The notes beneath the pieces are model-generated. The model searched no databases, was not told the DNA's origin, and was given only the letters and a program-made list of their open reading frames with translations. From an uncultured Planctomycetaceae bacterium (GTDB taxonomy: Bacteria; Planctomycetota; Phycisphaerae; SM23-33), in assembly GCA_964497475.1 (NCBI GenBank), contig CAZCDM010000001.1, positions 1-61,485 on the forward strand: 61,485 bases of DNA, read 5' to 3'. This document shows positions 2,735-41,700 of the stretch, in pieces (within the stretch, counting starts at the first letter, position 1; the number at the start of each line of letters is the position of its first letter). Position numbers and translations under genes: made by a program.

Positions 2735-2740
2735 TCGATC

Positions 2741-4924: not shown

Positions 4925-4925
4925 G

Positions 4926-6911: not shown

Positions 6912-6937
6912 TCAGCATTGGAAAGGACGTTATCAAA

Positions 6938-8491: not shown

Positions 8492-8728
8492 ATGTCTTTG
8501 ACCTCGAAAGCGTACCAACGTCTTTGCCACATGTATCGCGTTGTTCTGATGAAGATGCGTGTGAAGAACTTCATGCAGTTTGCGTATCACTCGCCATTGG
8601 CGGGCAAACGCAAGGGCAGGGGCGGTCTGCGCCGACGGCGAGGTGGCGAGGACGGGGCCACTGCGCGCGGAGGGGGTGTTGCGCCATCCAAGCGTATCGA
8701 GATGCTCGAGCCGCGCGTCATGCTTTCC
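8492..8728 (+). other. N-terminal leader: Arg/Gly-rich stretch followed by the LEPRVMLS motif (8705-8728)
   Basis: Translation: MSLTSKAYQRLCHMYRVVLMKMRVKNFMQFAYHSPLAGKRKGRGGLRRRRGGEDGATARGGGVAPSKRIEMLEPRVMLSGTPL. There is no classical hydrophobic signal peptide. LE(P/D)RxLLS after a basic stretch is a motif I recognise from the N-termini of large Planctomycetota (and some Verrucomicrobiota) extracellular proteins. Confidence 0.6.
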
Positions 8729-17700: not shown

Positions 17701-20700
17701 CGGCGGGGCGGTCACTGTCGAGTACGACGAGTGGACTCAGACGTATTACGGCATTACGAAAATCGTCGCCGATGGTGGCGAAGGCGATGACGTCTTTGAC
17801 GCCTCGGGCCTGCGGGATGTTCGCCTGGAGATCGATGGCGGGGCGGGCAACGACCGGATCATCGCCGGTGCGGCGGCCTCGGCCGTTCTGACCGGCGGCG
17901 CCGGAGATGACGTCCTGGACGCCTCACGGTCCTGGTATGCCTATCTCCACGGTGGCTCGGGCAGAGATACCCTTATCGGTGGCTATGGGAATGACGACCT
18001 GATCGGAGGGACGGGTGACGATTCGATCACCGGCAATGCCGGCGACGATCGCATCACCGGTGGCGCCGGGGCCGATACCATCGCCGGCGGCCAGGGCGAT
18101 GACACCTACCTCTTCGGCGATGCCTGGGGTAGTGATCGCTACCGCGACACCGAAGGCACGAGCACGCTGGACTACTCGGGCGTCACGGGCGACCTGACGA
18201 TCACGCTCAACCAGCGTGGGGCGGAAATCATCCATGGCGAGTCGCGTGAGGTGGTTACCCCGGCCGGTGATGTGCAGGACATGATCACCGATGCTTTGCT
18301 GACACCCAACCCGTACAGCCGCCCGCAGATTCCCATGCAGGAAGTCCAGGGCCTGGTGATTCACTATGTGGGGAATCCCGGCTCCAGCGCGATGGACAAC
18401 CGCAACTACTTCGAGTCGCTGAAAAACGGCGCCGGGTATGCCTCCAGTCAGTACATCGTCGGGCTTGAGGGCGAAATCATCCGCTGTGTACCGGAAGACG
18501 AAGTGGCCTATCACGCCGGAGGGGCAAACTATACCGACCTGGCACGCGATCGGTTCTGGGATGCCAATCGCGGGCGGATTTATCCGCACGACAAGGTCAT
18601 CGGCATCGAGACCTGCCACCCCGATTCGACGGGACAGTTCACGCAGGTTACGGAAGATGCTCTCGTGGCGCTGTCGGCCGATATCGTCCGCCGCTACGGG
18701 CTGAGCCGCGATGAGGTCCTGCGGCATCATGATGTGACCGGCAAGGACTGCCCCAAGTATCACGTCGATCATCCCGAAGCCTGGGAAGCGCTGGTCGACC
18801 GGATCATGGCTGCTGCGGCCCAGACGCCGGTCGAATCGGGCAGCGAGACCGTTGTGACCACGCAGCTCGGTGCGGTGCAGACCGGCCGCGGCGACGTTGG
18901 AAATATTATCACCCGCTTCGGCGATTTTGATCTGAACATCGGTCGTCCGGTCAGTGCCTTCGGTGCCGATGAAACGACCCAGCGGCTGGCCGAGGGGCTC
19001 GAAGAACTCAGCCAGTATGCACGCGACATGAAGGACTCGCTGCTGGAAGACATCGCCGGTCAGATCGGCCAGCAGATTCCCGGCACGGGCCTGAGCGTCG
19101 ATGAACTGCTCGACATGCGGGCGTATCTCGGCCTGGGCGATTACATCCAGGCCTACCTGTGGGGCTATACCCACCCCAGCGAGCCGCTGCCCGACAGCGA
19201 ACTGGACATCCCCATCGGTACCGATGCCGAGCCGACGGTTGGCGGGTTGGTCGACTACCTCGAGAGTTACTGGTTCCCGGCCCTGCTGGGAGGCCAGGCC
19301 CAGGGAAGCCCGATGACCCTTTCGTTCTCCAAGACCGACGGCGTGGTGACCGGGCTGGCGATGGATTTTGACGGCGAGGCCACCTACACACGCGACATTC
19401 TGGTTTCGCTTGGCTCCGACGCCGAAGCGCTGGGGCTGCAGTTGGCTGCCGACCAGACCGCCACCGTCGAAATCACCGCCGGGCTGGACTTCTCGATGAG
19501 CCTGGACTGGTCCAGCGAGACACCCGCCTGGAGCTATCAGGTCGACGAGTTGACCTTCGACGCACAGGCCGACCTAGACGGTGTGATCCTGGACGGAAGG
19601 GTCCACGATCTGGCGGTCACGACCGGCCGCGCCGGGGCCTCGGCCGGTACGTTCGACCTGACGCTTGATGCGGATATCACCCATGCCGCCGATTCGCTGA
19701 GCCTGACTCACAGCGGCACGGTGGCCCTGATCATGCCGATCTACGCCGAAATCGCCGGCACGCATGTCAACACCGCCCCGGCGAGCCTCTCGATTACAGG
19801 CGATATCGACGCCGGGACGAGCAGCTTCAACGCCATGAACTTTGAAACCTTCGACGCTTTTGCCGACGTCGAGGTCGAGACGATCATCCAGCGTCTCGAA
19901 ACGCTGGGCCGATGGGTCGAGGGCCTGGCTGGGCCCGACATGGGCGCGGTGGAAATCCCCTCGCTGGGCCTGACCGTGGGTGAACTCTTCCAGCTTGAAG
20001 ACAGCTGGGCCGCAGCCTATTCGCAACTGGACCTCAGTGGCGCGACAACCATTCAGGATGTCCTGGCTGCGATCGAATCGGCCGGGCTCGTTGCCAATGG
20101 CCAGGCCATCAGCTATGACGCCATCGAGCGAACCATTACCGTTCCGATGAGCTTCGACCTGAGCCTCGCAGACGTCCAGGAATTGCTGGTTAATACCGGC
20201 GGTCACTACGACGCAGAGTTCGAGGCGATGCTGCTCGATGCAATCGCCGCTCTGGCCGGCTCGGCCCGTGCGGAGGTCACCTTCGTTATCGATGCTGACG
20301 GCCCCGGCGCGACCGAAGGCTTTACCACCTCGGCTCAGATGCACATTACCGCTTCGGCCTCGGACATCCACTTCCCAGCCCGACTGGGCGACCTGGAAGT
20401 CAGCGTCGGCACCGAAGCATCCGGCACGGCTGAGATCGATCTGACGATGACCGCTTCGATGATCGAAGCGAGTGAAACCTTCGACCTGACCACCGGCGGA
20501 ACGATGAATGTCTACCTGCCTGTCTATGCGACCCTGGCCGGGACGAACATCAATCCGACACACACGGCAGGGCTGAGGCTGACGGGAACGGCCTTCGGCG
20601 CCGGTGGCATGGCCGTGACGACCGAGAATTTCGACAACCTCGTGGCCTTCGAGACGCTGACAGCCCAGCAGTGGCTCGACCGCATCGAACAGGCGGCCCG

Positions 20701-23700
20701 CTGGCGGAGCAACGACCTGGCTGCGACGGTGATTCCCTCGCTGGGGATGACTCTCGGCGATCTTGTCGATTTCGAGGCGATCTACACCGCTCTGATCGGT
20801 GGCGTCGACACCGCTGGCGTCGAGACGTTGCAGGATCTCGTCGCGGCCCTTTCCGCCGCCGGCGTGGTCGCCCCCGGGCAGAGCATAACATACGACGCGG
20901 CCGGGCGACGGATTTCCCTGCCGATGCACTTCGCTCTGGACGTCACTCCCATTTTCGAGCTGACGGCCGAGCTGGGGAGCAGCTATACCGCCGAACTCGA
21001 AGCCCTGCTGATCGAGACCATCGAGGCCATGGGCGATTCGATTACGGCCGATCTGGTTGTGTCGGTTGACCTGGACGGCGCGGACGGTTTGACGGATCTG
21101 ACCTGGCTGAGCGACCTGTCGGTGACGGCTTCGACCACTCGCCCGCAGCAGGATACGCTGTTGGGCGATCTGGAAGTGACCCTCGGCGACGGAACCACCA
21201 ACCCGACGGCTTCGATGAACATTACCGCCTCGTCGAGTCTCCGCGAGGCCACGGGCGATTTCACCATTTCCACCGCCGGTGACGTCGATGTCTACCTACC
21301 GTTCTTTGCCACCCTCGCCGGCGCTGACGTAACCCCCAGCGGCATTGCCGGCGTGCACTACCAAGGCGATATCCTGCCTGGCGATTCGACCAACGCCGTT
21401 GCACTGACCGCAGAAAATTGGGAAAACCTCGCCGAGTTCGAAGCCCTGACCGTCGAGGATATGATGACCCGGCTCGATGGCATTGCCTCCTGGCTGGATA
21501 CGCTGGGAGCCAGTGATCTCTTCGGTCAGCAACTGCCGTTCCTGGCCGAACGGCTTGGCGATGTGCTGGACTTCGGCACGGCCTTCCGGCAGGAAATTCT
21601 CGGGCAGGTCGACTGGGCTTCGGTCACCACGCTGCAGCAGTTCGTGGAGGCCTTCGAGTTGGCGGGCGTTCTGCCCGTTGGCGAGTCGATCATCTACGAT
21701 CCGTCCAGCCAGACCATCCGCCTTCCGAATGTGTTTGACCTGTCGCTGAGTACGTTCGACATGGAAGATCTCGACGCGCTGGGTCTGGTCGATACGGATT
21801 ATCTCATCGGCCTGGGGCTGCTGGACGTGGACGATCTTGACGGGCTGGATACGACGGGCTGGGGTCTCGACGATGTACTCGGTGCGGGGCTGCTCAGTCG
21901 GGCCGATCTGTTCGGCACGCTGGAGACCATCGCCGCGGCCGATCTGGTCAGCCACTCGCTGGTCTCGGCCCAGGAGATCACCGATGCGGGCTTCGACCCG
22001 GCCGGGATGATCGGCCTGGCCGAGCTGCTGGAAAGCGGCCTGACGAGCCTGGATCAGCTGGTGGCGGAAAACCTCGTCGCCCGGCAGCATCTCGACGACC
22101 TGGGGCTAATCGATATCGATCGGCTGAACCTCGAACCTGGTTCGCTGAATGAAATCTACGACCGCAATGTCCTGGTAGATTCCGTCTACGGTGAAAGCGT
22201 CGATCTGGACTGGATTCTCGACGAGGACTACATGGGCCTGGCCGAGCTGGTCTCGCTGGGGCTCATTGATAGCGGCGATCTGGACGGGTACGACTTTGAC
22301 TATTTCGGCCTGGATGACCTGACCCTGGAGCTGGGCGAGAACTATGGCTTGGACCTGGTGGGCCTCGAGGCCGAGCTGGCTGTCGACCTGCAGGCCAGTG
22401 TTGCCGCCGCGTTTGATATCGTTATCGACCTCGATGCCGCCGACGATGCCGGCGAGCTGACCTGGTACGTCGACGAGCCTACCTTCACTGGTTCGGCGAG
22501 CTTCGATATCAACAACACCGCCTCGCGTGGTCGGCTGGGCTTTATCGGCGTGACGATGGGTGATGTCGGCGGGCTCGACAGCCGCGTCGTGATGAACGTT
22601 GCCGGCACGGCGAGTCTGGATACATCCTCGACCCTGGCCGATCTCGATGAACTCCTGGCGGGTAACCTGTATGAGGATTTCACGGTCGACTACGGAGCGG
22701 GATCAATCGACCAGGCCGACCCCGAAGCGACGGGTGAGGCCTACGCGGTCTTCCGCGGGATCAAGATCCGCACCGGCATTGGCGGTATCCCGGCGGCCCA
22801 TGATGCGGAAATCTGGCTTAACGTCGCCGATGTCACCGACGGAACGATCAGTCTGGACATGCAGGACGTGCCGTGGGATTTCTATAAGCATCTGCGCATC
22901 GAGGATGTCCTTGAACTTCTGCACCGGGCCAGTGAGTATGTCCACGACGGGCTTGAGCAGTTGCCGTTCTTCCAGGCCGATGCGACTCTGCCGGATGGTA
23001 CGCCCAATCCGTTTTATGACATGAAGTTGCCCGGCCTGGACATCAGCCCGCGGGAGATCCTTGGGCTGGTGGACGATTTTGACGCGGCGGTCGAGCAGTT
23101 TGAGCAGGAAATCTACAAGCCCGAGAACGATCTTCAGGCGGCCCTGGCGTACCTCAAGGAGCGGCTGGGGATCAACCTGGAAAGCCCCGACTGCCTGACA
23201 GTCTACATGCAGGGCAACTTCATGCGGTTCGATTTCGATCTGCAGTTCCTCACGCGGCAGGCCTTCGGGTTCGATCTGAATATCGGGCAGTTCAAGGAGT
23301 TTGCCACCGGCGGGGCCGACAGCGGCTGGGATGATCTTGACCAGATGACTGCCGGAGCTGGGGCAAGTGGCGCGGCGTATCTGGCGGCCTTTGCGCATGT
23401 GGTCATCGAGGCTGGCATCGACCTCGGCCCGGACAACACCGGCGACGTGTTCCTCTACGAGTACAACGAGACGGTCGATTCGCAGACCAACGAAACCATC
23501 ATCAGCGGCACACGGCTCGAAGCGGGGCTCAAGGCGTTGGGCGAAAATCTCACGATGGCCTTCTCGACCGGTCCGCTGACCATCGGCGTCGATGGCGGGG
23601 CGATCACGATCGACGGCGACGGCGATGCGACGACCAACGTTGAAAATCTCCAGGACGAAGCAACGTTCGACCCGGCCAATCACAGCGACTACGCGACGGT

Positions 23701-26700
23701 GAGCTTCCGCCTCGACGATGGCGACGACGCCGACGATGGCGTATGGACCTTCGGTGATACCTTCGACCTCAGCGGCAATGTGGATGTCGTCGTCACCGGC
23801 GACTTCCAGGTCGACTTGCCGATTACGCTGGAGGCCTTCGGCATTGACGTGCCGCTGGGCAATCTGACGATCGAGACCGTGGACGACGATGGCACGGGCT
23901 TGGCCGACCTGTTTGATTATCTCCGCGGCGAGACGACGACCCATCCGGTTATCGTCAACCTGCCGAATATATCTGAGAACGTCGGCGATCCGCTGAGCAA
24001 CCCGCAACTGTGGATTGGCCAGCCGCTCGAACTGCTCTTGCCGACCGTGGGGCAGCTCAAACAGCAGTTGCTCGATACCCTTGCCGTCGATCCCGACGAC
24101 ACCATCGCAGGGACAAGCATCACCTACAGCGACCTGTTCGGGCCGCAGGGCCTGGAAGGGCTGCTTGACGTAGACACCCAGGTCCAGGCCTACCTCGATC
24201 ATATTGAGGCGAACAACCTCTGGACCGGGCTGAGCACGAAGATGTTCGCGGCCGGGCTGATTCACTGGCTCAACGAGAACTGGCTCAGCCAACTGCCGGG
24301 CTTCGATCCCGAAGACGGGCCCTTTACCCTGCAGATCAATGAAGCGGCCACGCAGTTTACGATTCTTTTTGACGGGGCGATGGCCTTTGGTCATCTCCAG
24401 AGTGTCGACTTGGGCGGGGCTCTGGCCGATGCGGGCGTCGATGTTGTCGAAGGTACCTTCGACCTGGCCATTGAAGCTTCGGCGAGCCTGAGCTTCGAGT
24501 TCTCCGTGGATTTCACTGACACGGCCAATATCGATTCCGACTTCACCTTCCATTCCCTGGGCTTTGACATCGCGGCCTCGGCCGATGATATCGCCATGGA
24601 GGCTGACTGGGGCGTGATGGAAGCGGCCATTGGCAACGTCGAGGACCAGCTCGGCAGCATCGCCCTGCACTTTGGCGGGACGGTTACCTGGGACGAGACG
24701 ACGGGTTTCGGCTTTGACGCTACGGGCCATACCAACAGCCTGGCTATCGACCTGCCCCTCTACGCCCGCCTGGGCGAGGCGGTCTTTGGTGGCACGGCCG
24801 GCCCGCTGGCAGGTATTTCTCTGATCGACAGCGACCTGCTTGACAACAATGCGCCGGGCTTCACGCTGACCAACACGGAAAACCTGGGGCGGAACCTTAT
24901 CGGTGCCCTTGGCGGATATGTCGAGCAGTTGGCTGGGCAGGTCGCTGCACTGAGCGACCAGGTGGCCGGGTGGGGCGTGATGACCTCGACCCTTGGCGGC
25001 ACGGACGTGTCTCTCGGCGACCTGCTGAATCTCGAAGCACTCTTCGCCGTCGGCGAGTATATCCAGCATTACCTCCACCCGATGCTGCATCCGGGACAGA
25101 CCCTGCCGGCCGGCGATACGATCCCGGTGGGCGACTACTCAGCCACCGGCGACCTGCCGACCATCGAAGGGTTGCTGGACTACCTCAACACCCACTGGGC
25201 GCCCACCCTGGGCGGCGGGGCTGACGGGCTCAGTTGGAGTCTCGACGAAACCGGGCTGCACATCGCCTTCGCCGATCAGCTTGCTGCATCGCACACCATG
25301 ACCATCAACCTCGGCGACGATGCCACAGAGTATGGCCTGGGTGTAGACGGAGAGATGAACGTCGACGCGGCAGTGACTACAGATGTGGCCCTGGGGCTGG
25401 ATATCAACCTGCAGACTGGCGAGATGAACTTCCACCTCGACCAGCTCGATATCGCCATCGCCGGCAGTGTCAGTGACCTGATTCTCGCCGGACACCTCGG
25501 CCCGGTCGATCTGGCCATCGGCAAGGCCGACGGGGACAAGGGACAGATATCCCTCGACCTGGCCGCCGGGATCAGCTATGTCGACGGCGCCTTCGCGTTC
25601 CAGGCGACCAACGATCAATTCAACGTCACGCTGCCGATCTACGCGGCCGTGGGCGGGGAGAGCCTCACCGACGAGTCGGCCACCCCGCAGGTGACCCTTG
25701 CCGGTGGGATGTTTGGCGGCTCGCCGCTGATCTTCAACGCCAGCGACCTCGATGACCTGGTGAGTTTCCAGAACTTTGATCTCGACTCGGCCATCGCGAT
25801 GGTTCCGGCACTGCTGGACTGGCTGACGGATTACGCCGAGGACAGCCCGGCCCTGCGGACTGAACTGCCGCTGCTGGGGGGCAAGACTCTCGGCGAGGTC
25901 ATCGATGTCGTGACCGTCTTCACCGAGCAGGTCTCCGACAAGCTGGACTTCTCTGAGACGGTGACGATCGGCGATTTTGTCGGCGTGATTGTCGACAGCG
26001 GCATCGTGCCTGACGGCATGGACGTGACTTACGATGCGGCGACGGCATCACTGACCATTCCGGTGAGCTTCGACGTGATCTTCGATGTCCTGGAAGACCA
26101 GGCGATTGACCTGGGGCTGGACTTCGGCGACTCGCCTTTGGCGCAGATCAGCACCGAAGCCCTGGCCGATCTGGCCGCCGAACTGCATGGCCGGATCGAC
26201 CTGGTGATGGATTTTGACGGTCCCAATGGCACGGAGGGCATGAGTTTCTTCATGGACAATGTCGAGATCACCGGGCAGGTCGGTTTTGACGTGTCTGACA
26301 TGGAAGCCGCGGCCCGGCTGGGGATTCTTGGCTTCACGGCCGGCGGGCCCGACAGCCGCATTCTTCTTGACGCCACTGCTTCGATAACGGTCGAAGACCC
26401 CGACGACGAGCGAACGCGCTTCAGCTTCCAGGAACTCATCGGCGGCATCGTGACTAAGGCGGTCCAGTTCGATCTGACGGGGGATGCATCCGTCCGGCTG
26501 ACCGACCTGGCGGTGGAAGGGTTTGATTCCCTGAGCTTCGGCGAGAACGATGAATTCTTCGTGCGGGTCAATGACCTGGCCGACCTGACGACGACCGAGA
26601 TCGTCGCCATGCCGGACCTCAGCGGCTTTGATATCAGCAACCTCTCGAAGGACGACCTGCTGGCGGCCCTGGACCAGGCGGTTATGGTTCTGCGCGATTC

Positions 26701-29700
26701 GCTACGCTCCATGCCGATGTACCGCCAGACCATTCCGGTCATCAACCAGACGCCTGAGGAGTTGTTCACCATTGTCGAGGAATTTGGCGATGCCGTGGAC
26801 GCACTCCGCAACGACCCGGCCGGGGCGGTCCAGCAGCTCGAAGCTCGGCTGGAACAGGCCCTGGGCATTGTCGATCCGGACGATACGATTCTCAACTTCA
26901 CCCTCGACGGCCAGGTCCTCCGCATGATGCTGAACCTGGAGTATGTCCTGGCCAAGTCCCTGGGCTTCGATATGGACCTCGCGGCGGTCAAATCCCTGGC
27001 CGGTGTCGATGCCGGAGCTCTGGAAGGAGCCGATTCGCTTACCAGCGCCGACGCCACGGGCGAGCTGCTTCTCAAAGCCTTCGCCGATGCCCGCATCGAG
27101 CTGGGGATGGACTTCTCGGCCATGACCGATGACGATGGCAACCGCACCGGTGAGCCGGCGGACATCTTCCTGTACGACTGGGACGAAGCGACCCAGACCG
27201 GCACGAAGATTGAGGCTGGGTTCAAGGTTCTCGGCCGGGAACTGTTCCTCGGCGCCGAGATGGGCCCGCTCGAGCTGGAGGTGATCAACGGCGCGGTCAC
27301 GGTCGATACCGATGGGGACCCGACGACCAACCCCGAACTGCTCGACCCGGCCGACCGCAGCGACTTTGTGACCTTCACGGTCACGCTGGATCAGTTGCCC
27401 GAGGCCCAGGTCAGCGACGACGGGCGGTTCCGATGGTTCGGCGAGAGCCTCCTGAACAGCCTGGACTTCGATTTCGGTGGAGCCTTCTACGTCAATCTCC
27501 CGGCCCGACTCAACGCGTTCGGCGAGGTCTTCTACCTCACCGATACGCCGCTGCGGATCAGTGGCAATATGAGCCTTGATGGCTTCAGCGATGTGGAGTT
27601 CCAGTATCCGGATCTCAACGCACTGCTGGGGCAGATGACTTTCGATACCGGCCTGCGCATTGCCCTGGAAGAAGTTGGTCAGCTCATCGGCCAGCTCAAG
27701 GGCGACCTGCTGTCCAGCGTGAACCTCGACCGTGAGATTCCGGGTCTGGGTGTGACGTTTAACGAACTCTTCGGCAGCGGCGGGCTGGAAGCCTGGCTCG
27801 ATGTCGATACCCACATTCTCCAGTACGTGACCGATTACGACTGGTCCGGCGGATGGAACCGCATCGCCTTTACTTCCGGACTGCTGAGCTACCTGCAGGA
27901 CAACTGGATTTCCACCCTTGGCGGGTACGAGGATGGCACGGAAAGCCCGCTGAGCCTGAACCTCGGCGACAACGGCTTCGAGGTGGTCTTTAATGGCAAT
28001 GCCGGCTTCGTTCTGGACGACCTGCCGGTCGACCTGGCCGGCGAACTGGCCGACAGCGGCCTGGTCGTCACCGGCGATGCCGCCCTCGACGTTGAAGTCG
28101 ACACCGAAATGAAGTTCGCCTTCGAGGTCGGCTTCGATGGCAGTTTCGATTTCGACTTCGATTACTTCCGCTTCGACACCTCAGCTGACGCAGAAAATCT
28201 AATTTTCGGTGTCGAGTACGGCCCGCTGGAAGCCAGTGTCGGCCATGCCGACTACGACAAGGGCCAGCTCCATCTTGACTTGGGCGGCGAGATTCTCCAG
28301 CGCGACGGAAGCTGGCAGATGACACCCTCCGGCGGGGTGGATGTTTACCTGCCGCTGTACGGCGCGATCAACGGTGTGGCTGTTGGCGGGGCCGACGGGC
28401 CGCTGGCCGGCTTTGTGCTGACCGACAGCGCCTTGTTCGACGAGCAGTTGCCAAGCTATATCGCCCCAGACCAGTACGATGGGCAGGATCCGGCCTTTAC
28501 CGTGACCGGCCTGGAAAATCTGGGCAGGAACCTCAGCGGCCTGGCCGCGGGGTATCTCCAGGAACTCGGCGAGTACATCGAAGATCTTCGCGTCGACCTG
28601 ACTGGGAGCAACGGCAGTCTTGCCCAGTCGATCGTCGGAACCGATACCACCATTGCTGAGATGCTCGGCATGGACTCGCTTCTGAGCCTCGGGCAGTACA
28701 TCCAGCACTATCTCCATCCGTTTGTCAGCGGCGATGCCGAACCGCCCTTTGGTGAGGACATCGCCCTGGGCACCTACGCGGAGGGATATCCGACCGTCAG
28801 TGGCCTGGTGGAGTACCTCAACACCAACTGGGTGCCGACCTTGGCTGATGATGACATGGGCTTGCGCTTCGCCATGGACGCCAACGGGCTGACCGTCAGC
28901 TTTGATGGAGCGTGGAATGCGGGGACCACGGTCGGCTTTGACCTGGGCGACTGGGCGGAGACGGCCGGCGTGGAACTCACCGGCAGCGGCGATGTGAACC
29001 TGACGGTCGCGGCCGATCTGGATATGGCCTTTGCCCTGGACTGGACGACGGGCAGCTTCGACTTTGACCTCAATGAACTGATTTTCCAGGCCTCGGCCGA
29101 TACCCGCAATCTTGTGCTGGGCGCAGCGGTCGGTCCGCTGGATGTCAGCATCGGCCGACTCGGCGGGCAACTTGGCGAGATGGCCCTGAGCCTTGGCGGA
29201 ACGGTTTTCACCGACGAGACGACCGGCGCGTTGCGCTTCACGGGTGGCGGGAACAACACCATCGACATCGACCTTCCGCTCTATGCCACCCTCGCCGGTG
29301 AGGACATGACCGACCCGGCCGCTTTGCCCCGGCTGCAGCTCAGTGGCGATCTGTTCGCGCCTGTTCTGGCCACGCCCAACTTCGACCAGCTCATGGATCA
29401 GGTCGCCTCGATGGACTTCCAGACCGTCCTGGCGATGATTCCCGATCTGCTGACCTGGCTGGGCGACCTGGCGGGCGAATCGGCCTTCATGCAGACGACC
29501 CTGCCGTTTACCGATGGCGTGACTCTCGGCGAGTCGCTGGACTTCGTGACCAGCTTCGCCGACGAAATCCAGCAGAAGATCGACTTCAGCCAGGTCGATA
29601 CCCTGGGCGAATTCGTCTCGGCGTTCAACGACGCTGGCGTGCTGCCCGAGGGCGAACTGATTACCTATGATGCCGTCGCCCAGGCTCTGCGCGTACCGCT

Positions 29701-32700
29701 GGCCTTTGCCAGTGACCTGGCCGTCATGGAAGACCTCGCTCTGGATCTGGGTATGGATCTGGGCGATTCGTCCCTGGCCGAACTCTACACCGAAGCCCTG
29801 GCCAACATGAACGCCTCCGTGGCCGGGCAGGTCGATCTGGTGATCGACTTCAGCGGGTCGGAGGTGAGCCTGGCCGTGGAAGATCTCGAACTGTCCGGCT
29901 CGGCCGAGCTGGACGTCACTGACTTCGAGGCCGGGCTGGTCGTTGGCCCGCTGGCGATGACTGCCGGTGGCGCGTCGACGGGCAGCGGTCTGCACTTCGC
30001 CGTCCAGGCCGACTTGGCCTTGGATCGCGATCCGGCCGCGGTCGTTGCGGGCGATACTCGCTTTACCCTCGGCGAATTACTCGATGGCTCGGCCCTGAGT
30101 CACCTTGTCGCCAGCATCGACGGCGATGCCTGGGCCAAGCTCCAGGGGCTGGCCCTGGAAAGTGGAACGGGCGCGTTCGATGTGCCCATCGCCTCCGATG
30201 CACAGGTCTCCATCTGGCTGCCTGATCTGGGCGGCGATAATGCTCCGGCCCAGCTGGCCGATTTCCTGGCCAGCAAGACCCTCCAAGGGCATGTCGTCAC
30301 AGAGGTCGGCTCGCCCGGCGATCCGGGCTACATGATCGTCGTCTATCCCGACCTCGGCGATGCGCTGTCGCTGGGCAACCTCACCCGCGGCGACCTGATC
30401 AACGCGCTGTTCGAAGGCCTCGATCTGCTCGACGGACTTCTCAGCGACATGAGCTTCTACAACCAGGACCTGCCGCTGGTCAACCAGTCCCCGGCCGACC
30501 TGTTCGACTTCCTCTCGCGGATGCGCGTGGCCATCCAGTCGATCGATATCAACTGGGATGGCTTTGACTGGGGCACGCTGGACTTCGGCCACTTCGACTG
30601 GAGCGGCCTGAACTGGGGCGGGATCGACTTTGGCGCGTTGAACTTCGGAACCTTCGGCTGGGCATCGGGTGGCGGAGCCACCGACGGGTTGAACCTCGGC
30701 TCGTTGGATATCAGCGGCCTGGACTTCGGGGCCTTCGACTGGCGGCGGTTCGACTGGACGGCCCTGACCGGCGGGGCTCTGTCGACCAGCGGTGCGAACT
30801 GGGCAGCGATGGACTGGAGCCCGTTGAACCTTGGTTCCCTGAATCTCGGTCAGCTGGACCTCAGTGGACTGGACTTTGGCCAACTCGACTGGAGCGGATT
30901 CGACTGGGCGGGTCTGTTCGGGCAACTCGATCTCGGCCAGCTCGACTGGAGCCGTCTCGATGTAAGCGGAATGGACTTCGGGGGCATTGATCTCAGCAGC
31001 TTCGACCGCAATGCCGATCCGTCCACGTGGAATTGGGCCAGCGTCGATTTCAGCGGGTTCGACTGGGCGGGCCTGAACTGGGGCGAGCTGAACTGGGGCG
31101 AGCTGAACTGGGATGCCGTGGACTTCAGCCAGCTTGACTGGTCGAACATGAACTGGCCCAGCGGCCTGTTCGAGGGCCTCAACTGGGGCGATCTGAACTG
31201 GGGCGATCTGGACTGGGCTGCCGTGGACTACAGTCCGATTGATTCCTCCTTCGATCCGGCGGGCATTGACTGGGCCTCGATTGATTTCAGCGGCTTGGAT
31301 TTCGGCTCGATCGACTTCAGCAAACTCAACTGGGCCAGCCTCGACTGGGCGAATTTCGACTGGGGCGGCCTGGACTTCGCCGGGCTGGACTTCAGCGGCT
31401 TTGATTTCGGCTCGCTCGACTGGAATGCCCCGAATCTGGGCGCCCTGGACTGGTCGGGCCTGAACTGGGGCGAGCTGAACTTCGCCGGCATCGATATCGG
31501 CGGCGGGATCCAGTCGTTGGAGACCAGCATTGAAAAGGCCCTCGGCATCGCGGAAGACAATTCCCTCGATCCGATGGATCAGATATTCTCGCTGTGGATG
31601 GACGGCCAGAGCTTGCGGGTTCATCTGGACACGGACATGTTCTACCACGAGCAGATCACCTTCAACCTCGAACTGGCAGAGTTGCTGGCCGACGCCGGTG
31701 TCGATCCGGAGGTGATGGACATCCTCAGCCAGCTCGTCGCCGCCGATGGCAGCGGCACGCTGGACCTGGCCGCCTTTGCCGAGATCGGGATGGACCTGGA
31801 GATCGACCTCTCCGATGGCACGCCGGTTGTCCAGTTGATGGACTATGACGTTGCCAGCGGTTCCGGAACCCATTTCGATGCCGGCCTGAAGGTGATCGGG
31901 AGCAATCTGGACCTGACGGTTACCGCCGGCGAGGGGCTGTTGAGCCTGGCCATCGATGATGGTACGGTCACCGTCGATGCCGATGGCGACTCGGCCACCA
32001 ATCCCGAGCAGGGCGATCCGAACCTGTTTGTCGATTTCGATTCGTTCCAGGCCCAGTGGGACGCTTTCCTGGCGGCGAACCCGGGCTTCGAGCTGACCGG
32101 CTATGACTTCTCCGACCCGACCGACCTGCAGCAACTCTACGGCCAGAGCGTCCACTTCCTCGATTGGGTTCGATTCATTGGCGGCATGCCGGTGTTCGAC
32201 CTGTCGGCCTATGATCTCAGCGACTTCCTGACCTTCTCCGTCCACAAGACCGCCTCCGGCGTGGATGCGGCCCTGGGTGGCAGCTTCGATGTCAACCTGC
32301 CGGTCACACTCGACCTCAACGGCTACATCGACGATCTGGACAATGTCCCGATCCATCTCGGCGGCTCGTTCAGCCTGGCCGATGGCCTGAGCCTCGCGAC
32401 CCCGACGCTGCCTGATATCGCCGGGGCCCTGGGCGAGAATCTCGCCGATATCGGCATTGACTTGATGCTCCAGAGCCTCGCCGATCAGATCACCAACGCC
32501 AAGGATGCTCTCGTTGGCAGCATCGACCTTGACCAGCCCATCGCCGGAACCGACGCGACGATCAACTCGCTGCTGGGTGACGGCGGGGCCGAGGCCTTCC
32601 TCAGCATCGATCAGCACATCCACGAGTATATCGACTCCGTCACCGACTGGACCGCCCTGAGCCCGACCGAAGTGGCCGCCGGACTGATGGACTACCTCAA

Positions 32701-35700
32701 CGATCACTGGGTGCCGACCCTGCCGGGCAGCCTGGGCGGAACCAGCCCGTTCTCTATCGAGATGCTCCGCAGCGATGGTGCGATCAGTGGCTTTACGCTC
32801 GGTTTCGACGGAGAGGTCGCCTTCGCCGAGCAACTCATGCTTGACCTGGCCGATCAACTGGGCTCGGCCGGCATTGAGGTCGAGGCGGACATGAACTTCG
32901 GCGTCGATGTCGAAGCGGCCCTGGATTTCGACCTGACGATCGACTGGGCTCACGATGTGACCGACTTCACTCTCAACTCCCTCCGATTCGATGCCAACGC
33001 AGACGCGGCCGACATCCTTGCGGCGATTACCATCGGCCCGCTGGAAGCCTCGATCGGCCATGACGAATACGAAAAGGGCAGGGTCAACTTCGGCCTGGGT
33101 CTGCTGGCCCAGACCACCGGCGGGAGCCTGCAGTTCGAGCCGACCGCGTCCCTGCTGGTCGAGCTGCCGCTGTATGCTTCGATCGGTGGCATCAGCTTCA
33201 GTGCCGACGGCACGCCCGTGGCGAACGTCAAGTACACGAACCTCGACCTGTTCGGCGGCGGCAGCCAGGCCGACTTCGACACACTCCTGCAGGTCGATCT
33301 GGTCGACCTCAATCAGCTGATCGATGAAAATCTCATCAGCCAAGCCGACCTCAAGGACGGCTTGCGGCTGGGCGTTGATGCCCTCGTCACCGCCGGTCTG
33401 ATCAACGCTGGCGATCTCGATTCCATCGCCCGCGTGAATCTCGCGGCGCTACTGGAGACGGGGCTGGTTGATCTCCAGGCCCTGGCCGATGCGGGCCTGG
33501 TCGATCTCAGCGACCTGCGGAACCTGGGCGATTACGACCTCGATACGCTGATCGATGCCGACCTGGCCGATCTCGGGGAACTGGTCACCGCCGGAAAGAT
33601 CACCCAGGCCGACCTCGCCGACGGGCTGGCCGTCTCGGCCGGTGAGCTCATCGCCAACAATCTGATGACACTGGCCGATCTGATTGACAATCAGTACGTC
33701 GTGCTGGGCGACTTCAACGATCTCGGCCAGGCCGATCTGGACGATCTTCTGGCCGACGAGATTGTCGATTTCCTCGAACTGGCTGCCACCGGGTTCATCA
33801 CGGAAATCGACGTCGACGACTTGGGTTCCATGGCCCCGGCCGATGTCATCACCGCCTTGCCGAACGTGACGATGACCGACCTGGCCGAGCATATCACCGG
33901 CGGGCAGGTTGATCTCGATGCCGTCCTGGGCCTGGCCAACGTGACCCTCACGCAGATGGTTGAGGTCGGGCTGGTCGACGCAGCGAATCTGGACGATTTG
34001 GGACTGGCCCTGCAGGCCGACGTGGAAACCGCTTTGGGCATGACGGCCGGCGATCTCGATTCCCTGGCTGACGAAAATGGAAATGTCGACCTTGATGACG
34101 TTTTAGCCATGGCGGGGGTTTCCCTGCTGGACATGGTCAACGCCCAGCTGGTCGTCGCCGCCGATCTGCTTGACCTCGGCCTGGTCGATACGTCAACTGT
34201 CCTGGCCGGGTTGACGCATCTTTCGGCCGCTGATTTTGCCGACGATATCGTCGGCGGGCAGATTGACCTCAACGACGTGCTCGGGCTGGACAATGTGACC
34301 CTCACGCAGATGATCCAGGCTTCGATGACCACGCAGGCCGACCTGCTTGATTTGGGCCAGGCCGATCTGAGTGCATTGGTTGCCGGCGACCTGGCGAGTC
34401 TGGCCGACTTGGAATCTGACTCCTATATCGATGAGACGTTCCTCAAAGAGACGGCCTCGGCTTTGGTCGATTCGCTGCTCAATGACAGCCTGACCACCCT
34501 TGGTGAGTTGGTGGCAAGCCATCTCGTGACCCGCAGCGATCTGATCGATCAGCCCCTGGCCGATCTGGCTGAGCTGATAGCTGAGGATCTCGTCGATGTC
34601 GGCGGTCTCTTCGCGTCCGACATGCTGGACATCAACAATCTGGCTGGTCTGGGCGAGACAGCTCTCAGCGACCTGCTGGCGGCGACCAGCCTTTCCACCG
34701 GACAACTCAATGACCTGCTCGAAGTCGATGTGCAGGACCTGCTGAGCAATTCCTCGGTGACCCTGGCCGGGCTGATCTCCGGCGGGTTCATCTCGCACGG
34801 CGACTTCGCTGATCTGGGCAAGGCTCTCATCGGCGATCTCACCGCTGCCGGCGGGCTGCTGGAAGGTCTCCAGCTCGGCCTTGTGCCTGAGGGCATGGAC
34901 AACTTCCAGGTCATGCTCACCAACTTCGTGGCGGGGTATCTCAACGACCTGGCCGGCGAGCTGGTCAGCCTGCGGGAAGATCTCGCCGTCGAGTACGATG
35001 AGCAGGGCAATCGCATCAGCGACCACGTGCTGAGCAATCAGATCGCCGGGACCGATGCGAGCATCGACTCGCTGCTGGGGCTCAGCGATCTGCTCGGCCT
35101 GGGCGACTACATCCAGCATTACCTCCATCCGTATCTCAACCCGGGCGTCGATCTGCCGGCTGGCGATCCGATCCCTGTCGGGACTTATGCGGGCTATCCG
35201 ACCCTCAGCGGCCTGATGGAGTATCTCGACGTGAACTGGCTGCCGACTCTGAGTGCTCGCGACGGGGCGGGCATGAGCTACGAGCTGACGGAGAACGGCT
35301 TTGCCATCGACTTCGACGCCGATGTGACCTACAGCGACGAGATCGGTTTGCGACTTGGCGCCGAGGCCGACGAGTTGGGCTTCAAATTTGACGGAAATGC
35401 CGACATTGACGTCGACGTGACCAGCAATATCGACTTCGAGCTTGAACTGGACTGGCTGACGGGCGATTTCGGCTTTAACCTCAACGAGCTGGGCTTCCAG
35501 GCTGACGTATCCACAGACAACCTGGTACTCGAGGGCATACTCGGCCCGATTGAACTGGGTCTGGGCAGCAGTGAAAGTGGCGAGGAAATGGCCTCGGCCG
35601 CCCTGAGCCTCGGCGGGGCGATCAGCCTGGTTGACGGCGTCTTCGGCTTCACGCCGGCGACAAACACCATCGACGTCGATCTGCCCGTCTATGCCGAACT

Positions 35701-38700
35701 GGCTGGGGTGGATCTGGGCAATGGCGAGCGGCCTCGATTGATGCTCAGCGGAAGCCTCTTCGATGCGGGCGGCCCGACCTTCAGCCACGAGCATCTCGAC
35801 TCGCTGTTGAGCTTCTCGGACTTCGGCCCGATGGACCTGATCGTGATGTTCCAGGATACCCTCACCTGGCTGGAAGACTTCCGGGACAGCGACCTGTTCC
35901 AGACGGAAATTCCCTTCGTGAATCTCTCGCTGAGCGACGTGCTGGACTTTGCCAGTGCCTTTGATGAGAACATCCTCAGCAGGATCGATTTCCAGAAACC
36001 CTACGTCGAGCTGGCCAGTGGCACCGATGGCGTGCTGACGCTCGACAGCGACTTGTTTACCTCGACGGCAGTGACGTTCGATAGCGATTGGGTGGGCGAA
36101 CAGATTACCCTGGATGGCATTGACACGTTCACCATTGAAGAGGTCATCGATGACAACACCGTTCGCCTGGACGGTGTGGCCAACGGCGATCTGGCCGACG
36201 TGGTCTTCGCTGTCCACGAGCCGCAGGGCGACATTGAGACGATGCAGGAATTCGTTACCGCGGTGAATAACTCGGGCATCCTCGGTGGCCTGTCGCTTGG
36301 ATACGACCCGGCTGAACAGGTCTTCACGATTCCACTGTCGTTTGACATGAGCCTCCCGGCCGATCAGTTCAATGACCTGCCCATCGATCTGGGCTTCGAT
36401 CTGGGCGGTGATCTGGCCGGTGTGGATATCAACGCCGATGCCGACCTGACCGCCGATGTCCACGGTGCGTTTGACCTGGTGGTCGATTTCGATCCCAACT
36501 CGCTTCCGGCGATGATGATCGACAATGCCACAATCACCGCCAACGCGGCGTTTGACGTCTCAGGCCTGACGGCCGAGGCCATGCTGGGCTTCCTGCGGCT
36601 GACAGCCGGCGGACCTGACAGCGGCGTGCACTTCGCCGCTACCGCCACGGCCATGCTGGACCGCGACGGCGATGCCACCACCACCGACGACCGGCTGTTC
36701 GGATTTGACGACCTGATCAACGGGGAATTGGTCGATTCGTTCGACTTCGAGTTCACCGGCGATGCCTGGGCCCGCTTGCGGAGTCTCTCGGCTGGTACCG
36801 GCACGTGGGACGTGCCCATCGCCGAAGACGCGGAAATATCTGTCACCCTGCCGGACCTGACCGACTGGTCGACCGTCGAGGTTGTCACGCCGGACCTCTC
36901 GGGGTTGCTTGATTTCAGCGGCATTGACTTCCAGACCATCATCGACGCTCTGCAGATGGGGGTGGACATCGTCCAGCAGTCGCTGGCCGACCAACCCTTC
37001 TACAATGCGACCATTCCCGTCATCAACACGTCGCTGGCCGACACATTTGCTTTCATTGACGGCTTCATTGATCAGATCGACGAGGCGGCCTCGAACCCCG
37101 CCGGTGCGATCCAGGATGTCGAGGAAGCCATTGAGCGGGCTCTGGGCATTGACGACGCCGAAATCGACGGGTCCGGCCAGGCGATCGCAGCGCATGAGCA
37201 GGCATTCGCCCTGACGCTCGATACCGTCAATGAGGTTCTCAACGTTCACATCAACTGGGGCGCGGTCTACGCCGATGCGTTCGGCTTTAACCTCGATATG
37301 ATGGGCCTGTCGGGCGGCTTCGAACAGATTGCCAATTTTATGGACGTCAGTGCCGAGTTGGCGCTGGAAGCCTTTGCCGATCTGGTCATCGATGCGGGGA
37401 TCGACTACAGCACGCTCGGCCAGGGCGGGGGCCTGCCGGAAATCTTCCTCTATGATTACAACGACACCTTCGACCCGGCCGATGCGAGCTCGATCGAGGG
37501 AACCCACGTCGAAATCGGCGCACGGGTTTACGGCGACGACCTCAATCTCGCCTTGGACTTTGGCCCGCTGCAGGTCGGCGTGCTCAACGGCTGGGTCACG
37601 CTTGACGGCGATGGCGATGCCACCACGGACGACTTTGCTACGGTGCTGGTCTACCTCGATCAGGAGGACGAATCCGAGATCGCCGACGATGGCCGATACC
37701 ACTTTGGCCAGGAGTCGCTGCTCGATAAGAACCTCCAGTATGATATTACCGGCGGGTTCGATGTGACGCTTCCGCTGGATATGACCGTGCTTGGCCTGGA
37801 CCTGCCGGTCGGTGAGGATCTCTACATCCGCGCCCTGGCCGAAGACGGTCAGCCCAGCCCGCTGAAGCAGATGTTCACGTCGCTGATCGATCCGGATACC
37901 AGCTTGGGCGACATTCTCGAACCGGGCACGGGCATTCTCGATACCAATGCCCAGACCGTCCTGACTGAAATTCTGAACAAGTTTGATCTTAACGGCGGGA
38001 TGTTCTCGCTGCTGGGCCTGCTGAACGATCCGTCCTTCCTGCTGGATGGGGTGGACCTGGCCCTGGGCAGCCTGGAAGACGTGCTGAGCTCGAACCTGGC
38101 TGTCGACCTGCCACTGATCGGCGATAAATTGGCCAACGCGGCCGACTTCCTCCAAGAGATGCGGACGGGCATGCTTGCCGACCTGCGCGAGAAGCTCAGC
38201 GGCAACGGAAAGGCTATCGAGTACATCCAGGAAACCCTCTGGGACGTATTCGGCCCGACCGGTATGGATATCGTGCTGGACACCAACGCCGATGGCAGCA
38301 TCACGCTGGCCGATGTGATGGTCGGCTGGTACGACGCGAACGGAGTGTGGCTGGAAAGCTGGGAAGTTGGCGATGCGATTCCCGAAAACGCCGACGCCGT
38401 TCAGTTCGACGTGGCCCTGGGCGGGACCGCCTTTGCCACCGGTATCGACATCCCGCTGGATATCGACCTGCCGGGCTTTAGCCTGAACGTCGATGGTGGC
38501 TTTGCCCTGGAGATGGGCTGGAGCTTCGACTTTGGCATGGGCATCAGTCTGCTGGACGGGTTCTACCTGGCGACCAATGAAAGCGGCGAGAACCCCGAGC
38601 TGGAAGTCGGCATTAACGCCTTCCTTGATGGCGAGCCGATGGATCCTGACGTCACCACACGCTTCGACGCGGAAGGCAAGCTGCTGTTCTTCAAGGCCAC

Positions 38701-41700
38701 CGTGGAAGATACCGATCGCGATCCGGATACGCCGGGCTTCCAGCCGGGCGGGCTCTTCGGCGGTCTGACGGTCGATATTATCGGCAATGAACGTGACCGT
38801 CTGACACTTGACCGGATGCTGACGAACTTCAAGGATTCCTTCGACGTTTCGATGGGGGTCGAGGCCGACCTGTTGCTGGATATGACGTTGGCGATCGACG
38901 GCGCCGGCGGCCTGCCGACGCTCAAGGCCGACTTCGTCTTTGACTGGGCCTGGAATCTCGGCGAGGAAATGGAACTGCCCGATATCGGCCTGCAGAATGT
39001 TCGCATCGATGTGGGCGGCTTCGTACGCGACTTCCTCAAGCCGATTGTCGAGAAGATCAGTGACGTCCTCGAGCCCTTCATCCCGCTGGTCGACGTGCTG
39101 ACCCAGGATCTGCCCGGCCTGGATCAGATTCTCGACGATCCGAACCTCATGGGCCTGATCAACCTGATCCTCGAGCTCAAGGGGCGCAAGGCCATCGACT
39201 GGTCGTTCGTCTACGCCGTCGACGGGTTCATTGACTTCGTCCAGACCGTTAACAACATGACCACGGCCAGCGGTGAAATCCTGCTGGGCGACCTGATGGG
39301 CCTGGCCTCGGGGAACATCCAAGCCCGTGAGAAAGCCACCCTCGATGACTTCCCGACCGAGGTCACGATGGAAGGCACGAACAGCAGCTTCAATGCCGCC
39401 AGCATGCCGTTTGTCTACTCCGGCAAGAACGCCGATGGCAAGCCGAAGATCCTCTTCGGCCCCGACGAGGGCGACACCCCGGCCATGCTGCGGTTTGATT
39501 ACATCTTCGACCTGCAGAACTGGATGCAACTGCTTTCGGGCGGCGATGCGACGTTGTTCACCTTCGACGTTCCGAAACTGGAAGTCTCCTTCGACTTCTA
39601 TCAGACGCTGGTGACCTTCCCGCTCGGACCGGTTCTGCTCGATATCAGTGCATTCGGCAAGTTCAAGGCCATGGCCGACCTGGCCTTTGGATACGATACC
39701 TACGGCATTCGCCAGGCTATCCGGAGCCGCAACCCGTGGGACGCATTCGACGGGTTCTTCGTGGCGGATTACTCCCTGGCCACCTGGACGGAAAAGCCCG
39801 AGCTGACCTTCAGTGCTGAAATCGGGCTGGCCGCAGCAATCAACGTGATTCTCGTCGAGGCCGGCCTGGAAGGCAGCCTGATCTTCGAGACCGATATCGA
39901 CCTGCAGGACATTGCGGTTCCCACCCTGTACACCCTCATTGATGCCACGGGTGAGAAATCATCCAATTACGACGAACTGATCGACAAGGTGGATGATACC
40001 TTTGAGATCGGCGGGGTAACCTACGGGCAGGACTGGGAATCGGATGGCAAGATCCGTGCCAGCGAAATTGTCACGATGTGGAATTACGAAAACGGTGGGT
40101 TCAAGAACCTCGTGAACCTGACAGCTGAGCTGCGGTTGAAGATTGCTGCGTTTGTCGATGTGGGAATCAAGATTCCGTTTGTCGGTAAGGTCATGAAGCG
40201 GATCATCGACATTACGCTGGTCGATTCGACTCTGCTGGAGCTGGAATATAACGCGCCCAACGTCCAGCCTGTTCTGGGCGAACTCAGCGGTGGAACCCTG
40301 ACGCTGAACACCGGTGAACGTGCCAGCCAACGGTTGTATCTGGATACCGAAGATGGTGGCGAAAATGTCCGCCTGATCGGCGACAGCAACGACCTGTATG
40401 TGGTCTTTGGCGACTGGGTGCAGAAGTTTGAAGGTGTGACCGAGGTCATTGCCGATGGCGGCGAGGGCGACGATGTCTTTGACGCTTCCGAGGCCACCGG
40501 CATTACGGTGACCTTCGACGGCGGGGCAGGCAAAGACCGCCTGATCACCGGTGAGGCTGGCGGAACCTTGTATGGCGGCCTCGGCAAGGACACGCTCGAT
40601 GGCAGCCTGGCCACGGCGGCAGTGATCCTCGTTGGCGGCGAGGGGGACGATTACCTCATCGGTGGTGTCGGCGATGACAAACTGACCGGCGGGCTGGGTG
40701 ATGATAAACTCATCGCCGGAGCCGGCAATGACGAACTCGACGGCGGCGAAGGAGTTGACACGCTGCAGGGCGGTGCCGGCGACGATACCTATCTCTTCGA
40801 GGAACTTTATGGCATTGACCGCTTCCGCGATACCGAGGGGATCGTCACGCTGGACTTCTCGGCCGTTCACGCACCACTGACCGTTACGGTCAATCGCAGC
40901 GGGATTACGGCCCGGCTGGATGACGGCAGCGAACTCTCGGCCCGTCGTGCCGATATCGATCATGTCAAACTCGGCCTGGGGGATGACCTCGTCGTCATCA
41001 ACGACTTCCCCGAAGGCGAGCTGACCCTGACCGATGCCGGCGGCAGCGACGTATACGAAGTGCACCTCGGCCGGGCCACCTCGCCCAAGGCCGAGGGTAT
41101 CATTGACATCATTGATGAGACCGGCACCGATGACGAAGTCGTCATCGAACAGAAATACGACCGGATGCCCGTCGAGCTGCGCACCTATGAGGTCAAGAAC
41201 GGTCGTGAGGTGCTGACCTTCTCGCAGGAGGTCGAGTACGAAACCCTCATCGGCCAGGCAGCCCAGTTTGACGGCGAGATGATTGAGGGCTATGGCGAGG
41301 GCGTATCCTGGACGAACACGGAAGAAGGCTCGGAAGGCATTTCCGACTTGGGCGATGTGCATTTCCGTGCGATCGGCAAGACTCTCAAGGCCGACAGTGA
41401 ACTGCGGGCGACGGATATCACCATCGAGGTCGCTGAGTTGGTCGATGTCAATGCCAGCCTCGTCGCGACTGATTTCCTGGACATCACCGCCCAGGACCTC
41501 GACGTCGACGCCACCATGCTCGATGCCCCCACGCAAAGCTGGACCCTCACCAACGGAATCGAAATCGATGCGCTGGTTCAGTCCTCTGCCCGCGTCTCCG
41601 CAAGCGGTGCCTACCTGACGTTCAGCGGTACGATGGACTCAGTTGACGTCGACTGGGACATCGTCGGTGCGATCAATCTGACCGGCTCGTTTACTTCGAC

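Follow-up and report, generated by a model that had tools for sequence, protein, structure and literature searches.

Collinear super-repeats with nested tandem-repeat arrays in a giant protein of an uncultured Planctomycetaceae bacterium

A giant reading frame and its three super-repeats

The stretch of DNA analysed here (the window, 61,485 nucleotides (nt)) is an entire contig, CAZCDM010000001.1, of the metagenome-assembled genome (MAG) GCA_964497475.1 from an uncultured Planctomycetaceae bacterium, which comprises 2.45 Mb in 249 contigs with a GC content of 64.7%. Its forward strand carries a giant open reading frame (ORF, 8492..61483) of at least 17,664 codons, which has no stop codon and is cut at its 3' end by the end of the contig; no continuation was found on the MAG's other contigs. 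All the repeats and arrays described below lie within this ORF and on the same strand. A preliminary description of the locus had proposed that a super-repeat of ~1,200 amino acids (aa) acts as a scaffold into which repeat arrays were inserted at loops. We delimited three consecutive copies of this super-repeat, namely copy A (23492..27184, aa 5001-6231), which is free of inserts, copy B (27185..31861, aa 6232-7790) and copy C (31862..37561, aa 7791-9690). Copy B contains an array of Trp/Phe-centred pentapeptides (30542..31507), and copy C contains an array of 11-residue Asp/Leu repeats (Asp/Leu array 2, 33260..34891).

The super-repeat is built of ~270-aa modules, which recur ~20 times in the protein according to an iterated hidden Markov model (HMM). 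Each copy has the same order of parts: a head, module M1, module M2 with the motif YIQHYLHP, a divergent partial module M3, and a tail with FYNxxIPxIN. In copy A, these are a head beta segment, M1 (24095-24886), M2 (24980-25789), M3 (from ~26012) and a tail that reads MYRQTIPVIN at 26720. The ordered anchor motifs on which the three copies had been defined were all recovered. The 17,664-aa ORF contains YIQHYLHP at just three places (aa 5522, 6735 and 8872, starting at 25058, 28697 and 35108); their His codons, at 25067, 28706 and 35117, are 3,639 and 6,411 nt apart. The tail anchors of the general form FY(N/R)..IP.IN read FYNQDLPLVN in copy B (30455) and FYNATIPVIN in copy C (36998).

In self-BLAST, copy A is 33% identical to copy B (E 1e-174) and 33% identical to copy C (E 5e-137). 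A three-way MAFFT alignment of the copies is collinear save for discrete indels. With the three large inserts excised, the copies measure 1231 (A), 1237 (B) and 1277 aa (C) and are 35.5-38.6% identical over ~1,160 aligned positions, with 252 columns identical in all three and a largest leftover indel of 33 aa. A lack of collinearity outside the inserts, named earlier as the outcome that would speak against the scaffold proposal, was looked for in this alignment and not seen. The excess of 924 aa between the anchors of copies B and C had been ascribed mostly to the two in-frame arrays, which indeed make up 862 of these residues: ~314 net from the pentapeptide array and 548 from Asp/Leu array 2 (the latter by phmmer chaining), with small indels contributing ~62 aa. 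Both arrays occupy positions that are short linkers in the paralogous copies. For example, DALRNDPAGAVQQLEARLEQALGI (26798-26870) of copy A matches RVAIQS-[array]-IQSLETSIEKALGI of copy B, and M1 is separated from M2 by 32 aa in A, 52 in B and 571 in C. Smaller copy-specific differences include a ~35-aa insert GGDNAPAQLADFLASKTLQGHVVTEVGSPGDPGYM in the M3 beta region of copy B (30230-30334, aa ~7246-7280) and ~45 extra residues in the head segment of copy C.

The super-repeat is also present elsewhere in the giant protein. Self-BLAST revealed older copies at aa ~226-2260, in agreement with the related N-terminal units suggested at 10.7-14.4 kb, and further ones at aa ~3470-5165. Copy C is collinear with aa 3140-5931 of a homologue from the same-order genome G025 at 37-46% identity. 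On a larger scale, the stretches at aa ~1344-3250 and aa ~8770-10800 of the window's protein are both collinear with the same G025 region (aa ~3140-5600, again 37-46% identity), thus suggesting that copy C is part of a duplicated ~2,000-aa unit; both stretches end in an RTX block.

The family to which the super-repeat belongs is rare. Among 1.84 billion proteins, 159 representatives, most of them fragments, match at E <=1e-3, and the family was not found in 24 same-family genera. A search with a 10,000-aa reference restricted by region placed a partial hypothetical protein of 'Phycisphaerae bacterium SM23_30' closest among named relatives, in agreement with a planctomycete (Phycisphaerae-like) host. 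Homologues of 6,204-13,796 aa were recovered, and the one of 13,796 aa, from G025, is complete. The order M1+M2, the motif YI(Q/R)HYL(H/R)P in M2 and the tail helix-turn-helix with FYNxxIPxIN...ALGI define the family, and all of these are found in copies A, B and C, in G025, and in the homologues P0001 and P0002. Pfam and NCBIfam scans returned no family match within 23.5-38.5 kb, and a profile search of PDB sequences with the super-repeat gave 0 matches, so that the scaffold has no relative in Pfam, NCBIfam or PDB. In a module tree, M1-type and M2-type modules fall into separate clades (support 97/89 and 95/96), each of which includes the window, G025, P0001, P0002 and many other proteins. 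Since both clades span many proteins, the super-repeat is ancient and shared by the family as a whole, which makes A, B and C old paralogues.

Insertion sites and arrays

The preliminary description had suggested predicting the structure of one insert-free copy. We modelled copy A with AlphaFold2 on a 50-row alignment of paralogues and homologues, with a mean predicted local distance difference test (pLDDT) score of 75.6. In this model, each module starts with a bundle of helices and continues as a meander of antiparallel strands of ~20 residues, and the tail is a helix-turn-helix that carries the conserved FYNxxIPxIN. Foldseek comparison of the model with the PDB gave porins, OprC and LPD-3 (best E 4e-3, TM scores <=0.1), which is not significant, and comparison with BFVD gave levivirus maturation proteins (best E 7e-5, TM 0.06-0.15, probability <=0.47). 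We rejected these matches as evidence of kinship, as they reflect a generic likeness of a helical bundle plus a long antiparallel sheet.

Large extra segments, taken over the whole set of homologues, fall on five sites (S1 to S5, in copy A numbering), all of which are predicted to be turns in the copy A model. S1 (~450) is a turn (447-455) between strands 440-446 and 456-460, directly before the first M2 helix; S2 (~823) lies between helices 806-815 and 826-835; S3 (~875) is a beta turn of M3 between strands 867-872 and 884-907; S4 (~913) is the hairpin that joins the two longest strands of M3, 884-907 and 918-943; and S5 (1108) is the single-residue turn between helices 1094-1107 and 1109-1123 of the tail helix-turn-helix. 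We counted the family copies that span each site by phmmer (run with --nobias). S1 is uninterrupted in 20 copies and carries an insert in 1. The corresponding numbers are 52 and at least 15 for S2, 53 and ~9 for S3, and 55 and 7 for S4. At S5, 79 of 80 copies run through without interruption, with lengths that deviate by -1 to +5 residues, and 1 carries an insert. The element at S5, i.e. FYNxxIPxIN, 36 aa with a central (D/N)P(A/S), and ALGI, is kept in all homologues but copy B. With S5 uninterrupted in 79/80 copies and S1 short in 20/21, the inserts at S5 and S1 are apparently derived.

S2 has to be read differently. A 78-aa element at this site in copy C (35996..36229), absent from A and B, could be taken for an insert specific to C, a view that we do not retain, as at least 15 homologues have an element of 75-103 aa there. 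Judged from this distribution, the S2 element is probably ancestral and was lost in A and B. S4 holds a recurrent insert of ~63 aa in P0005, P0013, P0016, P0018, P0019, P0021 and P0049, and none in the window's copies. The general proposal of growth by loop insertion therefore stands in part: the arrays do sit in turns of the copy A model, but S1 is a module junction and the S2 element looks ancestral.

The array in copy B, at S5, comprises 325 codons and 54 in-register units of the form [L/F/I]-[D/N]-[W/F/L]-[G/S/A]-x. The centre position (i) is W in 27, F in 15 and L in 9 units, and position i-1 is D in 37 and N in 17; autocorrelation at lag 5 is 0.307, against a mean of 0.098 over lags 1-60. 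The array aligns in canonical register to the solved proteins 4yfo, 3pss, 2xtw and 2j8k (E 6e-5 to 7e-3) and matches a protein carrying PF00805, PF13599 and PF13576 (E 4.4e-9). It has the 5-residue period with the A(D/N)LXX pattern of the PF00805 clan and stays below the curated threshold, with no Pfam family at E <=0.01 and NCBIfam Qnr models reaching 16-22 bits against cut-offs of 125-480. The array is probably a beta-helix. It is unique to copy B among 154 family proteins examined. An exact 9-nt direct repeat, ATCCAGTCG (encoding IQS), bounds it on the left (30533..30541) and on the right (31508-31516); such a match is expected by chance in ~1.3% of comparable pairs of segments of the ORF. 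In addition, ~10 residues of the first tail helix of copy B are lost. Outside this family, the unrelated P0153 (an ENA metagenome protein of 558 aa) has an N-terminal Trp-centred 'LNWGD/LDWSG' array of ~135 aa that is 43% identical to the copy B array over 42% of the query, thus indicating that the Trp-centred array type recurs in different protein contexts. A second Trp-rich stretch of the giant protein, with 9 W per 100 aa, lies away from the pentapeptide array in the 54092 region (aa ~15200).

Asp/Leu array 2, at S1 of copy C, has ~50 units of an 11-residue repeat of the approximate form LVDLxxLxxxG, with periods of 11, 22 and 33. No Pfam or NCBIfam model matches the repeat, and a search of 300 further genomes of the phylum (E <=1e-5) turned up no Asp/Leu array. 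AlphaFold prediction of M1, array 2 and M2 together gave a string of short helices for the array at pLDDT 30-65, with 70-95 for the flanking modules. Asp/Leu array 1 (21785..22288, ~170-185 aa) lies in an older copy at S3, a predicted strand-strand turn, and is a further case of the pattern, as had been suggested. Asp/Leu arrays are in fact common in the family and are concentrated at S3, where their sizes are 184 aa in the older copy of the window, 285 in P0007, ~300 in G025, 1,289 in P0001, 1,664 in P0015 and 1,717 in P0002.

In a tree of the M3 region, the copies with S3 arrays are grouped into two orthologous clades (none of 500 label shuffles gave a value as low). One clade includes the older copy of the window, which means that orthologous arrays differ ~ten-fold in length. 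The other includes copy C, which lacks an S3 array; all orthologues of C (G025, P0001, P0002, P0007 and P0044) have one, together with a short linker at S1, where copy C has array 2. The comparison with orthologues for presence or absence of inserts, suggested earlier, is clearest for the G025 counterpart of C, whose ~300-aa S3 array and ~55-aa S1 linker are the reverse of the state in C. The native turns at S1 and S3 are themselves rich in Asp and Leu (e.g., AIDLGLDFGD and LIDSDLLDNN), and this composition could have seeded the expansions.

The DNA of the arrays carries traces of their growth. Repeats within the pentapeptide array are spaced by multiples of 15 nt and include perfect 15-nt tandem triplets and a pair, 87% identical, at a distance of 105 nt; those within array 2 are spaced by multiples of 33 nt and include a 122-nt pair at a distance of 354 nt. 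Most units are 60-78% identical at the DNA level with the motif retained, the conserved Leu and Asp residues are encoded by several different synonymous codons, and codon identity is higher at the second position (0.63) than at the third (0.45). We considered a foreign origin of the arrays and rejected it, because their GC and GC at third codon positions (GC3) equal those of the flanks and no donor was found elsewhere in the genome. From these sequence features we conclude that the arrays grew in place by in-register tandem duplication, that they are mostly old, and that they appear to be under purifying selection, which preserves the motif and thus suggests that they are folded parts of the protein rather than junk.

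Other features of the giant gene and its neighbourhood

The giant protein starts with a LEPR-XLL leader motif, KRIEMLEPRVMLSGT (8693..8743, aa 68-84), which scores 22.5 bits against a cut-off of 17 for NCBIfam NF012209; membership of NF012209 requires only this ~24-aa motif above the curated cut-off, and the giant protein has it. The motif is also found at the start of the G025 homologue and of P0001. Further along are an Amidase_2 (N-acetylmuramoyl-L-alanine amidase) domain (18338-18757, aa 3283-3422, E 5e-22) and two RTX nonapeptide blocks (PF00353), both internal, at aa 3171-3205 and ~10732-10766. Given the leader, the RTX blocks and the peptidoglycan amidase domain, the giant protein is plausibly a secreted fibre.

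Upstream of the giant ORF, four genes (788-7945) code for a GAF-HlyD adaptor, a fusion of an adaptor with a membrane protease of the HExxH type (M50-like, daptide-type), a SecA-like ATPase and another HlyD adaptor. The SecA-like ATPase is a separate gene of 661 aa (4926-6911), and none of the genes adjoining the giant ORF upstream codes for an ABC transporter. The first three genes are conserved together in ~30 Planctomycetota MAGs. A link between this short-SecA cassette and the giant gene was considered and gained no support from quick checks: in 36 fetched cassette loci, a giant homologue occurred within 10 kb in none, and neither did a LEPR-like leader followed by an open frame of >300 aa (by regular expression, within 10 kb). 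The giant gene of G025 has no SecA cassette nearby. Long ORFs antisense to the giant gene were dismissed as artefacts, as their sole match, to Extensin_1, reaches 50 bits where the cut-off is 105 and is a compositional mirror of the Trp/Gly-rich array.

Units of ~110 aa make up further repeats of the giant protein. A 128-aa helical insert had been described within a 115-aa repeat at 58169-58552. We found that the extra segment, of ~140 aa (58130..58552) and helical-looking in sequence, stands between two complete ~110-aa units (16437-16546 and 16688-16792) and not within one; the first of these reaches HMM position 109/109 before the segment begins, and the usual gaps between units are 6-13 aa. 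In the regions aa 11937-13284 and 16322-17582 (~44.3-48.3 and 57.5-61.2 kb), there are twelve near-perfectly spaced tandem units of this kind and a second set that is looser, with irregular gaps of 73-195 aa.

Probable array growth at turns and its possible meaning

The collinearity, the insert positions, the site states in the family and the signatures of duplication and selection that we observed are best explained by three ancient, collinear super-repeats in which in-frame arrays grew by tandem duplication at a few turns and were then kept by selection, and we consider this explanation likely. A few tight turns of the scaffold would tolerate arrays of tandem repeats that grow in frame. S5 would have received the pentapeptide array, in copy B only, and S1 the 548-aa Asp/Leu array, in copy C only, with S3 acting as a family-wide hotspot for Asp/Leu arrays of 184 to 1,717 aa. 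Growth would have proceeded by slippage or unequal recombination of 15- and 105-nt units in one case and of 33- and 354-nt units in the other, followed by divergence under purifying selection that preserves the repeat motif. As to the geometry and function of the arrays, we infer that they are most likely structured outgrowths or extensions that alter the reach and the surface chemistry of the fibre, the pentapeptide array possibly forming a rod with an aromatic core and the Asp/Leu array a series of short, highly acidic helices. Because the model shows the elements on either side of S3 and of S5 next to each other, outgrowths with a single point of exit and return are favoured at these two sites. 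That the arrays are displayed arms is a tentative suggestion within this explanation. A still bolder version, which we think quite unlikely, is that the turns are dedicated 'expansion slots', in which an undescribed 11-residue Asp/Leu repeat (helical in a low-confidence prediction) and, once, a Trp-core pentapeptide array would be grown and trimmed between lineages, thereby tuning the reach or the binding surface of a cell-wall-degrading fibre.

Several observations weigh against growth at turns. The two ends of pentapeptide beta-helices and of solenoid repeats are normally far apart, and such distant ends are hard to reconcile with a one-residue turn, unless the hairpin is opened or the array doubles back; copy B is also missing ~10 residues of helix 1. 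The model of the Asp/Leu array is of low confidence, at the pLDDT of 30-65 given above. S1 is at the junction of M1 and M2, where 'loop' may simply mean an inter-module linker. Nor are all length differences insertions, given that the ~78-aa S2 element looks ancestral, and polarity at S3 is a further difficulty, as copy C may have lost an array there or may never have gained one.

The arrays could alternatively be rod-like linkers at module junctions that push the modules apart and lengthen the fibre. This would agree with the position of S1 exactly between M1 and M2, with the 140-aa segment at 58.1-58.5 kb between complete repeat units, with the distant termini of solenoid-type repeats (established for pentapeptide-repeat proteins), and with the ten-fold length variation between orthologues, as expected of a length modulator. 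At S1 and at the 140-aa segment, a role as spacer or extension would suit the observations just as well as display. But S3 (strands 867-872/884-907) and S5 (helices 1094-1107/1109-1123) are between predicted adjacent elements, and a rod there would split the sheet or the hairpin; on balance, this explanation is possible but doubtful. Were the arrays instead ancestral and the short linkers elsewhere the products of deletion, arrays at S1 and S5 in the ancestor would require dozens of precise independent deletions, as S1 is short in 20/21 and S5 in 79/80 copies across both deep clades of the family, and as the (D/N)P(A/S) turn is conserved at S5 in all copies but B. As a general account, deletion is thus very unlikely. 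We accept it in part for S3 and S2, where all five orthologues of copy C have the S3 array that C is missing, and at least 15 homologues have the S2 element that is absent from A and B.

Two other explanations would deprive the arrays of a role. They may be unselected and perhaps disordered low-complexity expansions, left by neutral slippage and tolerated in a huge protein, and the low AlphaFold confidence for the Asp/Leu array, the perfect 15-nt tandem repeats, which show ongoing slippage, and the finding of Asp/Leu arrays in 0 of 300 other genomes of the phylum are consistent with this. Yet units that are 60-78% identical in DNA have kept their motif, conserved residues are encoded by synonymous codons with the second codon position more conserved than the third, >860 codons remain in frame, and Asp/Leu arrays persist in many diverged members of the family, which together make neutral expansion improbable. 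Misassembly of the metagenome could have joined the arrays into the gene, and the source is a fragmented MAG of 249 contigs; however, a 53-kb open frame runs through both arrays, whose GC3 is that of their flanks, the genome has no second array copy to cause a chimera, the flanking direct repeat of 9 nt is far under assembler k-mer sizes, and like arrays occur in homologous proteins from independent assemblies. We find such an artefact hardly credible.

Known systems resemble parts of this arrangement. Giant RTX adhesins, such as the Marinomonas primoryensis ice-binding adhesin, LapA and SiiE, extend by tandem Ig-like domains arranged as beads on a string. The giant protein is likewise huge, plausibly secreted, repetitive and acidic and has RTX blocks, and an extender role of its repeats is plausible, but here the arrays are nested in turns of a larger, non-Ig super-repeat. 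RTX/type I adhesins are characterised by RTX nonapeptides close to the C-terminus, a C-terminal secretion signal and an adjoining set of ABC transporter, adaptor and TolC. The RTX blocks of the giant protein are internal, the C-terminus of the ORF is beyond the contig end, and HlyD-type adaptors, the HExxH protease and the short SecA are encoded upstream without an adjacent ABC transporter. In domain insertion, or nested domains, a structured element sits in a surface turn of a parent fold that stays collinear; the inserts described here differ in being open-ended arrays that grow in place, with a ten-fold range of length among orthologues, and not globular domains with adjacent termini. Compared with pentapeptide-repeat proteins of the PF00805 clan (QnrB1 2xtw, AhQnr 3pss, Np275/276 2j8k and the designed beta1 4yfo), which fold as a right-handed quadrilateral beta-helix, the copy B array shares the period of 5 and the [D/N][W/F/L] pattern at i-1 and the centre, whereas Trp is its commonest centre residue and i-2 is bulky (Leu, Phe, Ile) and not Ala. 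It is moreover nested in a helix-turn-helix of a giant protein, whereas the proteins of the clan stand alone. The LEPR-XLL giants (NF012209, 'LEPR-8K') are alike in having the leader above the cut-off and in being very long, repetitive and presumably secreted. NF012209 is defined by its ~24-aa leader alone, and the super-repeat, the ~270-aa modules and the nested arrays are not described there.

Giant proteins of Omnitrophota, which have SecA_DEAD and preprotein-binding domains fused within them (West-Roberts et al. 2023, bioRxiv 10.1101/2023.11.21.568195), are similar in that they, too, are giants from the Planctomycetes-Verrucomicrobia-Chlamydiae (PVC) superphylum, have a domain that degrades cell walls (Amidase_2 in the present protein) and are predicted to form large antiparallel beta structures accompanied by helices. 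We detected no sequence relationship between them and the giant protein, and scanning of its 17,664 aa revealed no fused SecA domains of the Omnitrophota type, the short SecA being a separate upstream gene. Nested arrays were not found in the text of that preprint, in which 'pentapeptide' appears 0 times and 'insert' once, in connection with sequencing errors (10.1101/2023.11.21.568195). Overall, the rare scaffold family, the 11-residue Asp/Leu repeat and a Trp-centred pentapeptide variant nested in another fold have not been described.

Giant bacterial proteins are mostly unannotated and their growth is poorly understood, and the present case offers a concrete and testable picture of it, in which hundreds to thousands of residues are added to an ancient 1,230-aa super-repeat via arrays at a few turns, and these arrays differ strongly between orthologues. 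Should the arrays turn out to be displayed arms for binding, loop-grafted repeat proteins would have a natural example in this scaffold. If the turns are expansion slots, the family would possess a length-variable display system made from nested repeats and not from tandem domains.

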